Shown one piece after another: positions 24,782 to 62,438 of a stretch of 64,000 nucleotides of DNA; within the stretch, counting starts at the first letter, position 1, and each line of letters begins with the position of its first letter. Origin of the DNA: a virus. Taxonomy: Duplodnaviria; Caudoviricetes. The stretch spans positions 32,001-96,000 of the IMG/VR virus record IMGVR_UViG_3300033075_001536. One strand, written 5' to 3'. The notes under the pieces were generated by a model that did not search any database, was not told where the DNA came from, and worked only from the letters and a program-made list of their open reading frames with translations. The position numbers and the translations under genes were made by a program.

Positions 24782-25666
24782 ATGGTAAAAGAAAAGAAGA
24801 TTTCAGCTCGACCTTACGAGCAAACAATGATTAAGCCTCTAGATTTTGACAAAATGACTCAAAAATTAAGAGGTTTTTTTATGCCACTTGGCTTTAAAGA
24901 AACATTTCCACAACCTAGAGTATCTATTCTAGCAGCCTGTGAGGATCCAAAAACAATTAGAAAGTACACATTTTCTGGAACAGAATGGCCTCTCATTCAA
25001 ACCAATCAAATGTGGTTAGAACATGACATTTTAAAAGAACCAGAATTGGAAGGTGTTTTTTGTTTATCTACCTCATATAGAGACGAGCCAAATCCAATAG
25101 AAGGAAGACACAATAAAATATTCCCAATGTTTGAAGCGGAGCACCTTGGAGATTACGAACATTTATTAAAAACATTATCAGACTTATGTGTTCACCTAGG
25201 ATTTGTCAAATCAACAAAAGATATTCCATTTTTTACTTATGATGAGCTTTGTGAAAAATATGGAACTTTAATACTTGAATCTGAACACGAAACAAAAATG
25301 TGGGAGGAGTATGGTGATGTGGTTGCAATCACACATTTCCCTCAACGAACAAGTCCATTTTGGAACATGAAATCAATTGGCAAAAATAAACACGGTGAAA
25401 AAATATATGCAAAATGTGATTTCATTATTTGTGGACAAGAAACCATTGGATCTGCTGAAAGAGATACAGACATTGAAACGATGAGGAAAAATTTCCATAC
25501 TATTTCTGGTGGGGAATATGCTAAAATTTTGTTTGATCAATTCTCAGAGGAAAGAGTAGAGTCAGAACTAGAAGACTTCTTTAGTTTACCAATGGTTGAG
25601 AGATGGGGATTTGGGATGGGACTTACAAGACTTCATAGAGCTTTAAAAATTAAAAATCTGATTTAA
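24782..25666 (+). CDS. Class IIb aaRS catalytic-core paralog (Asp/AsnRS-like; archaeal-type asparagine synthetase AS-AR-like), no anticodon-binding domain
   Basis: Motif 2 YRDEPNPIEGRH..IFPMFEAE; ETIGSAER; motif 3 GFGMGLTRL; only 294 aa. Confidence 0.85.
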   Translation: MVKEKKISARPYEQTMIKPLDFDKMTQKLRGFFMPLGFKETFPQPRVSILAACEDPKTIRKYTFSGTEWPLIQTNQMWLEHDILKEPELEGVFCLSTSYRDEPNPIEGRHNKIFPMFEAEHLGDYEHLLKTLSDLCVHLGFVKSTKDIPFFTYDELCEKYGTLILESEHETKMWEEYGDVVAITHFPQRTSPFWNMKSIGKNKHGEKIYAKCDFIICGQETIGSAERDTDIETMRKNFHTISGGEYAKILFDQFSEERVESELEDFFSLPMVERWGFGMGLTRLHRALKIKNLI

Positions 25667-25680
25667 TCAGGTTTTTTTTT
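25652..25680 (+). terminator. Possible weak intrinsic terminator
   Basis: ctgat-tta-atcag hairpin followed by T9. Confidence 0.45.
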
Positions 25681-25693
25681 GTGAATATTTTAA

Positions 25694-25792
25694 TGTTGGG
25701 TGGTGAAATTGGCAAACACACCGTACTGTCTATACGGCATGGATAAAGGAATAAAAACCTCCATATACATCGTTCGAATCGTGTCCCAACAG
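25694..25792 (+). tRNA. Atypical tRNA-Asp(GTC) with long variable arm
   Basis: Acceptor TGTTGGG/CCCAACA with G73; D arm GTG-AAATTGGCAAA-CAC; anticodon stem CCGTA/TACGG with loop CT-GTC-TA; extra arm ATGGA...TCCAT; TTCGAAT T-loop with bulged T-stem; no encoded CCA. Confidence 0.8.
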
Positions 25793-25830: not shown

Positions 25831-26487
25831 ATGAAACCATTGTTTGATATCAATGATTATAAGAATATAAAATGTTTAGAATTTGAATGTGAATTTTGTG
25901 GAAAGTCATTTGCTCCTTTAAGGAGAAATGCAATACAATCTATTCGTAAAGTTCAAAATGTTCAATTCTGTTCTACTATTTGTAGAATAAATGCTCGTGT
26001 AGAAAAAATAGAAATACCTTGTTCTAATTGTAATAAATTGGTGTATAGAACAAGCTCACACTTTAAAAAAAGCAAAAATAAACGGGCTTTTTGCTCAAAA
26101 TCTTGTTCAGCAATTTATAATAATACCCATAAAGCCTATGGAACAAGACGAAGTAAATTAGAAGCATGGATAGAAAAGAATTTAAAAGATAGATATAATT
26201 TTGAAATAATATTTAACGGAAAAGAAGAAATTAATAGCGAGTTAGATATTTTTATACCGAGTTTAAAATTGGCATTTGAATTAAGCGGAATTTTTCATTA
26301 CGAGCCAATTTATGGAATTGAAAAATTAAATATGGTAAAAAATAATGATAATAGAAAATTTCAAGCTTGTTTAGAAAAAGGAATAAAATTGTGTATAATT
26401 GATACTTCAAATAGTAAAAAATTTAAACCAGAAAGAGATAAAAAATATTTAAATATTATAGAAAAAATAATAGACTCAAAAAATTAA
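25831..26487 (+). CDS. Zn-finger plus PD-(D/E)XK (Vsr/DUF559-like) putative homing endonuclease
   Basis: CEFC/FCS..C repeats; ELDIFIPSLKLAFELSG..HY; late box upstream. Confidence 0.8.
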   Translation: MKPLFDINDYKNIKCLEFECEFCGKSFAPLRRNAIQSIRKVQNVQFCSTICRINARVEKIEIPCSNCNKLVYRTSSHFKKSKNKRAFCSKSCSAIYNNTHKAYGTRRSKLEAWIEKNLKDRYNFEIIFNGKEEINSELDIFIPSLKLAFELSGIFHYEPIYGIEKLNMVKNNDNRKFQACLEKGIKLCIIDTSNSKKFKPERDKKYLNIIEKIIDSKN

Positions 26488-31105: not shown

Positions 31106-32710
31106 TTAATTAAATCCTAACCAATTTTTTACTTTTCTACCGAAGCTTGGATGTGTTCGATCATATTCCTCTTGTTCAAGTCTTTGTCTTTCGATTTCAG
31201 CAAGTCTTTGCCTTTCTTGTTCTTGTCTTTGCCTTTCTACCTGGTCAGCTATTGATTTATCATGTGTCTCTTTTGCCTTTCTTTTTTCCTCTTCGACTCT
31301 TTTCTTTTCAGACTCTTCTTCTAACTCGTTCTTATAAAACTTAATAAGAGCATTTCTTAAATTTTCAAGACCAAAAATAGTATCTATGACATCAGATGAT
31401 TTTTTGCTTATTGGAATGCTTAGATCCGAAAACCCTTTCATATTTGGACCACATATATTATTTAAATCATTAAATAGAGTAGTTGGTCTCCTATTCTTAT
31501 AGATAAAAAATACATTGGTGGTTGTTTCACCATCATAGTTTTCTGGCTTAGTATCTGTTAGATTAACTACTAAGTTATCACGATTGTTAATAAATGGGAC
31601 ACATAACCATTCCCGACCTTTACTATTTTTGAAGATAGAACATTCTGGATTTTTGGTTAAAAATTCCTCTTGTTTCCAAATACCTGTTTTAAAAGCAATG
31701 GATAATAATGGTGTTGGTAGGTATTTTTTTAGTTCCATTCTATGCTTAGTTATTTCGTAATATACTTTTTGATTAATAATTGGGTATAAATTATTTGTTT
31801 TACCATCAAATTCATAGACATAATACCCTTCGAGTCCAATAATTTTATTGAATTGTCCATTCACAGTAAGTAAATAGGAAGGTCCTTCGGTACTTTTAAT
31901 ATCAACTTCAAATATGACATATTCTTCTATTTTTTCAATATCTCCTTTACCCAACAAATACAATTTTTTATTTTTGTCAAATGTTATAATTGCTTCTTTT
32001 CCTAAAATTTTATCATAGGATATAACACCAACTTCTTCACCTTTCATAAATTTTTTAATATTAGAACAAATTCTTTTACCTAACCCATCTGCTATATTTA
32101 ACTCTTTATCATTATCATCAAAAGCATAAATTTTGCTACTATCCACATTAAAAGTAAGTCCAAATCGAATATATGGATTAGATGTATTTACATATTTATC
32201 TAGATAATTTGTATTTGGTGTCAGTAGTTTTTTACCAATCTTTTTAATCACTACCCATTGTTGATTTTTTCCAGGATTGTGGTTGGTATATTTATCAAAA
32301 TAAGATTTGGTTTTTATACACCAAGAAGGAGATCCACAATTAAGAAGTCCTTCGTAAGTCATTACTCTAAAATAATCATAAACCCCATCCGTAAATTGAA
32401 ATTTATACCCATTATCTGCTTGTACAGAGGTTTTGTCCATTAGATAATCAGATAATTGAATGTAGTCTAACTTTAATGCTTCACCAGCATTAATATTTAA
32501 TTCGACCAAAGAATTATAAATAGATTGAAGCTCGTCTAATGGAACATTATCAACAAAATGTAATTTAGTTAGAAGTCCTAGGTATCCAGATTTGTCTTTA
32601 GACATCTCTCTAATTTTAATAAAATCCTCATCCTTATCATATAGTCCTTTTTTTCTAAGAACAGAACGAGCATAATTTAGATTTTCAAATAAATGGAATT
32701 TGGTGACCAT
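31106..32710 (-). CDS. CTS-like-tagged protein with G-x(3)-WCIK motif and C-terminal coiled coil
   Basis: MVTKFHLFEN; CGSPSWCIK; E/R/Q-rich tail; paralog of 1..1479. Confidence 0.8.
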   Translation of the reverse strand: MVTKFHLFENLNYARSVLRKKGLYDKDEDFIKIREMSKDKSGYLGLLTKLHFVDNVPLDELQSIYNSLVELNINAGEALKLDYIQLSDYLMDKTSVQADNGYKFQFTDGVYDYFRVMTYEGLLNCGSPSWCIKTKSYFDKYTNHNPGKNQQWVVIKKIGKKLLTPNTNYLDKYVNTSNPYIRFGLTFNVDSSKIYAFDDNDKELNIADGLGKRICSNIKKFMKGEEVGVISYDKILGKEAIITFDKNKKLYLLGKGDIEKIEEYVIFEVDIKSTEGPSYLLTVNGQFNKIIGLEGYYVYEFDGKTNNLYPIINQKVYYEITKHRMELKKYLPTPLLSIAFKTGIWKQEEFLTKNPECSIFKNSKGREWLCVPFINNRDNLVVNLTDTKPENYDGETTTNVFFIYKNRRPTTLFNDLNNICGPNMKGFSDLSIPISKKSSDVIDTIFGLENLRNALIKFYKNELEEESEKKRVEEEKRKAKETHDKSIADQVERQRQEQERQRLAEIERQRLEQEEYDRTHPSFGRKVKNWLGFN

Positions 32711-62117: not shown

Positions 62118-62330
62118 AGTTTTTAAGAATTTTTAATTTTTCTGTTGGTATTTTTTGTCTATATATGGGATTCTTCCATCATAGTTACATCAATATTTTC
62201 CTAGGACTTTTAAATATTTTTTTTGGGAATGAACCTTTTGGAAAAACTTTTTAAATTTATTTTAGAAAAACGAAACAAGAATCCAGAAGACAATTTCTTC
62301 GATAATATTGAAGAAGATAAAAATGGTTGA
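62114..62330 (+). pseudogene. Small membrane protein frameshifted in a T8 run (real lesion or sequencing error)
   Basis: Removing one T at about 62217-62224 gives ...NIFLGLLNIFLGMNLLEKLFKFILEKRNK...NG*. Confidence 0.55.
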
Positions 62331-62395
62331 GTGGCCGAGAGAATAGGCGGATCCTCGCAAGGGATTCTACGGTAGTTCAATTCTATCCTCAACCT
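62325..62395 (+). tRNA. tRNA-Cys(GCA) with non-canonical anticodon loop
   Basis: GGTTGAG/CTCAACC with U73; D stem GCC/GGC; anticodon stem GATCC/GGATT with loop TC-GCA-AG; T arm GGTAG-TTCAATT-CTATC. Confidence 0.85.
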
Positions 62396-62438
62396 CAAAT
62401 TTTTCCTTTATTACAATTATTTTCCTTATATTTACATT

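Follow-up and report, generated by a model that had tools for sequence, protein, structure and literature searches.

The locus analyzed here raises the question of what the catalytic core of an asparaginyl- or aspartyl-type tRNA synthetase (AsnRS, AspRS), devoid of an anticodon-binding domain, does in a phage genome next to a tRNA of aberrant build. It lies at positions 24,782 to 25,792 of a 64,000-nucleotide (nt) stretch of DNA, hereafter the window, which covers positions 32,001 to 96,000 of the Caudoviricetes virus record IMGVR_UViG_3300033075_001536, and it comprises the gene of an enzyme, here called X, and a type-II-bodied tRNA with a GUC anticodon on the same strand. The original prediction, made from the letters alone, had proposed three readings of this pair, namely a plain asparagine synthetase next to a decoy or defence-evading tRNA, an orthogonal synthetase/tRNA pair, or a Ser/Leu-type tRNA body that misreads Asp codons, and none of them fits the evidence presented below well. 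X is probably a metabolic enzyme that has not been described before, rather than one that charges tRNA, and the reading that we tentatively favor, with a confidence that stops short of an even chance, is that X is a pyrimidine-synthesis enzyme feeding PyrD (dihydroorotate dehydrogenase), which in phages travels in a mobile module with a co-inherited tRNA. A literature search found no paper on the enzyme/tRNA pair or on a pyrimidine role of X.

X has an AsnRS-like catalytic core

The original prediction of a 294-amino-acid (aa) class IIb core without an anticodon domain was borne out by the open reading frame (ORF), by its family match and by the coordinates, with a gap of 27 nt between the end of the stop codon (25666) and the start of the tRNA (25694). 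The sole Pfam match of X was to tRNA-synt_2 (PF00152; E 2.6e-13, residues 24-288), and neither Pfam nor structural alignment revealed an N-terminal OB-fold anticodon-binding domain in the 294 aa of the protein. Among the NCBIfam models only weak AsnRS and AspRS matches were obtained, and X reached 20-23 bits with the full-length equivalog models, whose cut-offs are 353-414. The genX/EpmA equivalog models were absent from the NCBIfam matches at E≤1, and the AsnA family model (PF03590) gave no match to X at E≤1. In a profile search, true AsnRS was found at E 2e-11 and the archaeal asparagine synthetase A (AS-AR, a paralog of AsnRS; 3p8t) at E 1.2e-5 (28 bits).

The AlphaFold2 model of X (predicted local distance difference test 93, built on 34 homologues) had its best fold matches in AsnRS catalytic domains, with Z 27.5 for the human enzyme (8h53, aligned from its residue 224 as numbered in the entry), followed by archaeal/eukaryotic-type AspRS (Z 26.2), AS-AR (24.1-24.6) and GenX (23.3). 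The whole model superposed only on the C-terminal catalytic parts of the AsnRS and AspRS chains. In the alignment with human AsnRS, the motifs QTNQMWLE, SYRDE and GRH of X corresponded to QSSQLYLE, SYRAE and RRH, respectively. At positions where X and AsnRS have Leu and Glu, AspRS presumably has Lys and Gln, which we take as a lead and not as a test.

All ATP and amino-acid motif residues of X are intact. Of its 294 positions, 79 were conserved to 93% or more in a set of 135 representatives from cells and phages, among them every one of the motif residues, which suggests that phage and cellular X share one activity. In the same 135 representatives, no pocket position separated the enzymes linked to GUU tRNAs, those linked to GUC tRNAs and the cellular ones. 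Thousands of homologues of about 290 aa were returned by a protein search, and comparison with a protein atlas did not add a function. Judged from its sequence, X is an intact AsnRS-like core that should use ATP.

One of the longer X homologues, the 614-aa metagenomic protein P0135, carries a GIY-YIG/NUMOD3 homing-endonuclease module joined to the X core, which suggests that homing endonucleases travel with or invade the X gene.

Cellular X is linked to the PyrD-PyrE-PyrF segment of pyrimidine synthesis

Scanning the prokaryotes with a single genome for each species yielded 425 loci in bacteria and archaea that encode proteins about 50% identical to X, which NCBI (PGAP) names only 'amino acid--tRNA ligase-related protein'. 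The carriers belong to the candidate phyla radiation (CPR), DPANN, Rickettsiales, Coxiellaceae, Chlamydiae, Dependentiae and Pasteurellaceae, and are mostly metagenome-assembled genomes (MAGs) of symbiont-like lineages.

Cellular X is tied, physically and phyletically, to the PyrD-PyrE-PyrF segment of the pathway where the three upstream enzymes are missing. The physical link was observed at two levels. Eight of ten longer X homologues consisted of an N-terminal full-length dihydroorotate dehydrogenase domain (DHO_dh, i.e., PyrD) fused to X, with E-values of 1e-42 to 1e-52 for the DHO_dh part in the three fusions that were scanned. Furthermore, PyrE, PyrF and/or DHO_dh-like genes adjoined X in 34 of the 80 cellular loci (25 of 31 in Pseudomonadota), and in one of these loci (L195; loci are denoted by L numbers) the neighbors of X scored above the NCBIfam cut-offs both for PyrE (242, cut-off 208) and for PyrF (189, cut-off 92). 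The phyletic link was analyzed in 35 X-carrier genomes from different phyla, in which aspartate transcarbamoylase (ATCase) exceeded its cut-off in 2 and dihydroorotase in 2, and DHO_dh was found in 20. When 81 genomes of one order were sampled evenly, X was present in 18, and CarB (carbamoyl-phosphate synthetase), PyrB and PyrC were detected in none of these 18; the 63 X-negative genomes of the order had CarB in 50 cases, PyrB in 51 and PyrC in 49 (Fisher p about 1e-9 to 2e-10 for the exclusion, a test that ignores relatedness). If X replaced the first three enzymes, uridine monophosphate (UMP) synthesis with PyrD, PyrE and PyrF but without CarB, PyrB and PyrC would be explained. A replacement of dihydroorotase only is unlikely, because ATCase and CarB are also missing in the carriers.

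AsnRS is the sole translational user of free Asn. It was over its cut-off in 1 of 5 X carriers and in about 12-13 of 30 others, i.e., about 21 of 35 carriers lack it; GatB was present in 4 of 5 carriers and AsnA in 0 of 5. Since X occurs both with and without AsnRS, the proposals that X supplies Asn to AsnRS, or that it replaces AsnRS, were rejected as simple rules. The view of X as a plain asparagine synthetase is not supported by these data: the kinship with AS-AR is distant (E 1e-5), there is no AsnA match, the majority of the carriers have no AsnRS that could use the product in translation, and the genomic context is that of pyrimidine synthesis.

Other cellular loci showed recurrent arrangements. 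A cassette of X, PyrF, a short phosphoribosyltransferase (PRTase) and a DHO_dh-like gene is nearly the same in Rickettsiales/Midichloriaceae (L187, L188, L190, L201, L230 and L235) and in Pasteurellaceae (L196, L228 and L250), and the X proteins of Rickettsiales and Pasteurellaceae form sister groups in the tree. This suggests that the cassette as a whole was passed on horizontally. In a Dependentiae locus (L189, 4100-5770, minus strand), a 557-aa protein fuses a partial DHO_dh, a PRTase and a full orotidine monophosphate (OMP) decarboxylase, and lies about 750 nt downstream of X on the opposite strand; this is another fusion within the PyrD-PyrE-PyrF segment. In nine CPR loci (L181, L182, L204, L208, L213, L219, L243, L249 and L258) X is preceded by Dus (tRNA-dihydrouridine synthase, E 6e-61) and often followed by the gene of DNA polymerase III gamma/tau, and in five of them a tRNA-Gln(UUG) is located within 2.5 kb. 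This CPR neighborhood may be plain synteny.

X and the tRNA form a conserved phage module

A DNA search of a phage collection matched X to the 'tRNA ligase' genes of the Prochlorococcus phages P-SSM2, P-SSM5 and P-SSM7. The enzymes of P-SSM2 (PSSM2_198) and P-SSM7 (PSSM7_129/130; GenBank, cluster T4-GC 194) are 46-48% identical to X, and each is followed after 7-9 nt by a 'tRNA-Asn' of 85-88 nt that, as in the window, is of type II and has U1-A72, G73 and U37. These tRNAs differ from that of the window in that the anticodon is GUU, the variable arm is of 17 nt, the T stem is regular, and no T-run intervenes between the two genes.

A search of IMG/VR with a pattern made of the D arm and the anticodon loop returned more than 119 contigs, in which 117 elements had the GUU anticodon. 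All of the GUU tRNAs for which upstream DNA was present (107/107) were preceded by X on the same strand, and the other 10 were located at locus edges. The spacing between the stop codon of X and the tRNA was 5-11 nt in 90 of the 97 cases measured. The genome context of the module differs between P-SSM2 and P-SSM7, and in P-SSM7 it is embedded in a tRNA cluster (Ile, Arg, Leu, X, Asn). Cyanophage contig L021 has X, the tRNA, PyrE (TIGR00336; score 141, cut-off 107) and PurM in this order, and four more cyanophage loci carry a PyrE-like gene in their flanks. The locus is a mobile, conserved two-gene phage module in which the tRNA is inherited with X. Co-occurrence across phages had been named as one check of the original prediction, which was to fall if, among other things, the linkage were not conserved and the tRNA were a decaying pseudogene; instead, the linkage proved to be strongly conserved and the compensatory pairing of the tRNA is kept (see below).

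The annotation of the P-SSM2 tRNA deserves a comment. In NC_006883.2 the 'tRNA-Asn' feature (PSSM2_199) is placed at 164094-164179, inside the CDS PSSM2_205, and the real tRNA is at 162082-162169 of that record (L001, 3624-3711), about 2 kb away. In GU071092.1 the tRNA is at 164085-164180. The offset of the feature (about 2007-2012 nt) matches the 2007-nt shift to GU071092.1, so that it looks like a coordinate carry-over error.

The window tRNA belongs to a phage-specific, structurally constrained family

The features of the window element are compiled in Table 1. The GTC anticodon, G73, U37, the U1-A72 pair, the type-II-style D arm, the variable region of about 29 nt and the bulged T stem that had been described beforehand were all read in the sequence.

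Table 1. Position and make-up of the features of the X-tRNA locus (window coordinates).
Feature	Position	Strand	Description and basis
Gene of enzyme X	24782-25666	+	294-aa ORF with ATG start; class IIb (AsnRS-like) catalytic core
AT-rich hairpin across the X stop codon, then T9 run	25640-25679	+	Read from sequence; only spurious terminator-like sRNA matches in Rfam
Type-II-bodied tRNA(GUC), 99 nt	25694-25792	+	Match to covariance model R1, family covariation; no CCA encoded
Acceptor stem	25694-25700 with 25785-25791	+	7/7 Watson-Crick pairs, U1-A72
D arm		+	3-bp stem GTG/CAC, 11-nt loop
Anticodon arm		+	Stem CCGTA/TACGG, loop CTGTCTA; read from sequence
Anticodon and U37	25728-25731	+	GTC at 25728-25730, U37 at 25731, followed by A38; read from sequence
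Variable arm	25738-25766	+	29 nt; 5-bp basal stem ATGGA/TCCAT plus inner GG/CC
T arm	25767-25784	+	Canonical loop TTCGAAT; 5-bp stem with one extra U on the 5′ strand
G73	25792	+	Read from sequence

ARAGORN did not call the window element, and the only tRNA that it called in the window, or in the whole 170-kb phage genome, was a tRNA-Cys (GCA; 62325-62396, plus strand), which is thus the only canonical tRNA of the record by this program. With relaxed settings ARAGORN returned a nonsensical intron-containing tRNA-Val, which was rejected. Rfam gave no tRNA match at the window element even at E≤10, and none over the whole phage record at E≤0.001. The minimum free energy (MFE) of the element was no better than that of shuffled sequences (z = 0.64); the cloverleaf has -19.4 kcal/mol, i.e., 0.7 above the MFE structure of -20.1.

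We then used a covariance model, R1, built only from the related phage tRNAs (an alignment of 22 sequences with a hand-written structure). In this alignment 19 of the 24 pairs showed compensatory changes and 98.5% of the cells were paired, which is far above shuffled and slid controls, and in the consensus fold of the GUC clade 17 of 24 pairs covary. R1 matched the window exactly at 25694-25792, over its full length, with 63.3 bits (E 1e-14), and this was the sole R1 match in the 170,678-bp phage record. R1 also scored genuine tRNA-Leu at 55-67 bits; it is not specific, and members of the family were therefore recognized by U1-A72, G73, the GUY anticodon and U37 and not by their score. The cyanophage relatives and that of L136 were called tRNA-Asn or tRNA-Asp by ARAGORN. 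We conclude that the window tRNA is real and structurally constrained, and that it belongs to a phage-specific family.

The variable arm of the window is a shortened form of the 40-66-nt arms of the related GUC tRNAs, and four pairs of its basal stem covary in the GUC-clade alignment. The long arms of L148, L152 and L093 have the motifs GAAATAAAG and CCTAATC in common, and L154 has GAAACAAAG. The window arm keeps the GAAATAAAG/CCTAATC-type motifs only in part. The recurrence of GAAATAAAG and CCTAATC in long arms hints at a candidate specific binding site. The extra T-stem base of the window aligns in a single column with those of L153 and L154, and is hence a shared trait and no private damage. 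Larger departures were seen in L168 (1565-1681; also in L169), where the D loop has an insert of about 26 nt, and in L026 (3437-3571; also in L062), where the variable arm of about 66 nt has a hairpin of its own.

With respect to identity elements, every family member seen had a GUC or GUU anticodon and G73, and the acceptor features were invariant across the GUU and GUC members. Apart from position 37, shown here as a dot, the anticodon loops are as in tRNA-Asn (CUGUU.A) or, in L148, L152, L153, L154 and L162, as in tRNA-Asp (CUGUC.C); these five have C38 and the window has A38. Position 37 was always U; most relatives had been collected with a pattern that contained the loop CTGT(C/T)T(A/C), and those found with the covariance model also had U37. 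From the bacterial tRNA-Asp set (GUC, G73, G1-C72, purine 37 and C38) the window has only GUC and G73, and from the tRNA-Asn set (GUU, G73, U1-A72 and A37) it has U1-A72 and G73, but neither GUU nor A37. Bacterial GatCAB uses U1-A72 to select Asp-tRNA(Asn) and to reject Asp-tRNA(Asp) (PMC1635274, PMC2811023), so that its strict retention on GUC tRNAs is anomalous.

The D arm, in turn, has 22 nt identical to a phage tRNA-Leu. The idea of a Ser/Leu-type body that misreads Asp codons was correct in that the body is Leu-like, but G73 argues against charging by LeuRS, and U1-A72 with G73 is the acceptor signature of bacterial tRNA-Asn. Within this reading, the tRNA may be serylated by SerRS.

The tRNA accompanies X in several lineages and is often lost

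The closest relatives of the window locus differ in their tRNA content. In L148, L152, L153 and L154, X is 81-83% identical to that of the window and is followed by GUC tRNAs of 110-111 nt with U1-A72, G73, U37 and variable arms of about 40 nt. GUC tRNAs also follow more distant X genes in L162, L168/169 and L136. In L157 only a decayed 5′ half of the tRNA is left, and in L147, L149, L151, L150/L002, L155/L003 and L156 X is followed by a terminator and no tRNA. No such tRNA was found elsewhere in the large contigs of the tRNA-less relatives (records 31-87% complete).

In a FastTree phylogeny of 135 representatives, in which many forks were unresolved, phage X proteins fell into several groups interleaved with cellular X. 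One cyanophage clade was entirely of the GUU type, the window clade had a support of 100, L136 was on a long branch, and a clade with L162 and L168 (GUC) was placed beside near-identical tRNA-less relatives. X is joined by a tRNA with the same odd features in four or more separate lineages of the enzyme, which favors a functional link over simple inherited synteny. The frequent loss of the tRNA indicates, in turn, that it is at most conditionally useful.

Proposed role of X and of the tRNA

X would use ATP to convert a substrate of the Asn/Asp type into dihydroorotate or its immediate precursor. In structure, dihydroorotate corresponds to L-asparagine in which a carbonyl links the two nitrogens, so that Asn plus CO2 (or bicarbonate) and ATP, brought together in an AsnRS-like pocket, would be an economical proposal for the chemistry. 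Alternatively, N-carbamoyl-aspartate might be closed by a beta-carboxyl activation of the AsnA type, which presupposes a supply of carbamoyl-aspartate. In the phage, X would be an auxiliary metabolic gene that provides more pyrimidine for DNA synthesis by using the PyrD, PyrE and PyrF of the host.

The tRNA could act as a carrier: the AspRS of the host, which reads GUC/GUU and G73, and GatCAB, which reads U1-A72, might build asparagine on it and in this way supply or spare the Asn consumed by X, and the exact anticodon would matter little. A carrier role would explain that either anticodon is acceptable and U1-A72 is invariant, that the features required for decoding (a purine at position 37, a regular T stem and a compact arm) are relaxed, and that X and the tRNA point to the same amino-acid class. 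In its most complete form the proposal is a tRNA-dependent pyrimidine branch, in which host AspRS and GatCAB make Asn on a dedicated, non-translational phage tRNA, and X converts it, taken from the tRNA or after release, with CO2 and ATP in one step into dihydroorotate, so that carbamoyl-phosphate synthetase (CarB), aspartate transcarbamoylase and dihydroorotase are bypassed. We consider this complete form unlikely. There is a modest chance of a categorically new system here, namely if the tRNA takes part in the pyrimidine pathway.

Should the pyrimidine reading be true, X would be the entry that UMP synthesis has so far lacked in many bacterial and archaeal symbionts and would represent a new reaction among the enzymes derived from aminoacyl-tRNA synthetases, and a family known only by its 'ligase-related' name would gain a concrete, testable function. 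The tRNA by itself, with a type-II body, an Asn/Asp anticodon, U37, and U1-A72 on a GUC tRNA, breaks several textbook rules of tRNA class and identity. Since the module is co-inherited in more than 100 phage contigs, among them those of the cultured P-SSM2, P-SSM5 and P-SSM7, experiments are feasible in an established phage-host system.

Several points weigh against a pyrimidine role of X, against its coupling to the tRNA, or against both. The substrate and product given for X are guesses that extend from its sequence and context, and canonical class II chemistry activates the alpha-carboxyl, which is not what dihydroorotate formation needs. Most X-carrier genomes are MAGs of unknown completeness, and the co-occurrence counts are not phylogenetically independent. 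No pyrimidine genes are located beside X in the CPR and DPANN carriers. The phage record of the window (78% complete) has no PyrD (DHO_dh) or PyrF (OMP decarboxylase) homologue, so that the phage X would depend on host enzymes. As to the tRNA, type-II GUY tRNAs were absent beside X in all 80 cellular loci that were inspected, the 13 tree representatives of the window clade comprise 5 with a GUC tRNA, 1 with a decayed one and 7 without it, and GUC tRNAs that have giant variable arms but no X nearby occur in L026, L078, L093 and L137. Moreover, a carrier role would require AspRS and GatCAB to accept a type-II body.

Alternative explanations of the X-tRNA pair

The alternative that survives best, and that we regard as possible if somewhat unlikely, is that there is no coupling at all: X would be metabolic, and the tRNA an ordinary codon-supplementing one, charged by the AspRS or AsnRS of the host, that hitch-hikes in a mobile cassette. 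Phage tRNAs are common, AT-rich phages use many AAU and GAU codons, the P-SSM7 module sits inside a tRNA cluster, and the anticodon loops copy those of tRNA-Asn and tRNA-Asp except at position 37; the frequent loss of the tRNA and the occurrence of related tRNAs without X also agree with a hitch-hiker. However, an odd tRNA of the same class would hardly be expected with X in at least four X lineages, and the type-II body and U37 are left unexplained. In addition, GUC together with U1-A72 would, in hosts with GatCAB, put Asn-tRNA on Asp codons (PMC1635274).

An orthogonal synthetase/tRNA pair, as contemplated at the outset, would have X read the acceptor end (U1-A72 and G73), and perhaps the long arm, to charge Asn or Asp for translation, and would give the phage its own Asn- or Asp-decoding tRNA, e.g., when host tRNAs or synthetases are attacked. 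The conserved linkage stands in its favor, since all 107 GUU tRNAs for which upstream DNA was present follow X, mostly at 5-11 nt; an enzyme of the AsnRS/AspRS class fits the GUU and GUC anticodons, the acceptor features are invariant over both anticodon types, and the motif residues for ATP and the amino acid are all intact. Yet X, with its 79 near-invariant positions, is kept essentially the same by hundreds of cellular genomes from which this kind of tRNA is missing, where it lies in pyrimidine operons and fusions, it is found alongside canonical AsnRS as well as in its absence, and close relatives of the window locus keep X and lose the tRNA. Furthermore, if one unchanged pocket served both the GUU and the GUC tRNAs, one of the two sets of codons would be mistranslated, and U37 is unfavorable for decoding. 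We therefore judge that such a pair has a small probability.

Still less probable, in our estimate, is a non-translational RNA of another kind, either a decoy for an anticodon nuclease that hits GUN tRNAs, or an element cut by RNase P that serves the 3′ processing, stability or regulation of the X mRNA. The spacing of 5-11 nt would suit the latter, with the stop-codon hairpin protecting the 3′ end of the mRNA after RNase P cleavage, and U37, the arms of up to about 66 nt, the 26-nt D-loop insert of L168 and the irregular T stems of the window, L153 and L154 suggest that ribosomal constraint is relaxed. But covariation over the full cloverleaf, including the anticodon stem, and the strict T loop and acceptor identity exceed what a processing signal needs, and no defence gene or nuclease was implicated by any result.

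Finally, it is very improbable that the window copy of the tRNA is a decaying pseudogene beside a functional X: the missing ARAGORN and Rfam calls, the extra T-stem base, the truncated variable arm, an MFE no better than that of shuffles, the clearly decayed relative in L157 and the many relatives without a tRNA would be in line with decay, but the other four stems are perfect and differ from those of the relatives by compensatory changes, the T-loop sequence is intact, the extra base is common to L153 and L154, and the 63-bit model score is similar to those of well-formed members (52-69 bits).

The region around the module

The space between X and the tRNA had been predicted to hold a weak terminator (25652-25680), which was taken as an argument against obligatory co-transcription. 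An AT-rich hairpin with a T9 run is indeed present (about 25640-25679), but it fails the G+C criterion of the terminator scan; it could be a weak terminator or a hairpin that protects the 3′ end of the mRNA. Equivalent hairpins, which span the stop codon or follow it, were observed in P-SSM2, P-SSM7, L015, L148, L152 and L154.

The genes that neighbor X in the window were conserved in none of the related loci examined. Downstream of the tRNA, a 218-aa ORF (25831-26487, plus strand) has several CxxC pairs and a match to the zf-FCS (MYM-type) zinc finger (E 1.4e-6), and no homologue of it was found beside the module in any related locus.

Comparison with known systems

Among the nearest known systems is AS-AR (PDB 3P8T and 3REU; also 1NNH), which is likewise a core-only class IIb protein of about 294 aa with the same fold and no anticodon domain. 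Its match to X (Z 24.1-24.6, about 253 residues aligned, 17% identity) is below that of AsnRS. AS-AR provides a precedent for an AsnRS-derived enzyme with a tRNA-independent role in Asp/Asn metabolism. Unlike AS-AR, X is found mostly in genomes without AsnRS, is tied to PyrD, PyrE and PyrF, and excludes CarB, PyrB and PyrC; we know of no link between AS-AR and a tRNA gene. The catalytic domain of AsnRS itself (8H53, 1X54 and 9SH8) is the best match of X in both sequence and fold, and the arginines of motifs 2 and 3, the QxxQxxLE motif and GRH/RRH align. X differs from AsnRS by the lack of the OB-fold domain, by an identity of only about 20%, and by its genomic context.

Other synthetase cores without an anticodon domain perform non-canonical jobs: HisZ is a regulator of HisG, EpmA/GenX lysylates elongation factor P, and YadB/Glu-Q-RS glutamylates the queuosine at position 34 of tRNA-Asp, the last being a precedent for a synthetase core that acts on a tRNA with a GUC anticodon. 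They differ from X in that none of them gave a family-level match to it, and none is known to be tied to PyrD, PyrE and PyrF or to be located beside a tRNA of its own.

On the side of the tRNA, the family resembles the type II tRNAs (Leu, Ser and bacterial Tyr) in the 3-bp D stem and in the long, base-paired variable arm, and differs from them in its anticodon, which is that of Asn or Asp (a type I family), and in its discriminator base, which is G73, where tRNA-Leu and tRNA-Tyr have A73, a base that LeuRS requires. From the tRNA norm it departs by U37 in place of a purine and by the combination of U1-A72 with an Asp anticodon. With bacterial tRNA-Asn, as defined by the identity set that GatCAB reads, the family shares U1-A72 and G73 (PMC1635274, PMC2811023).

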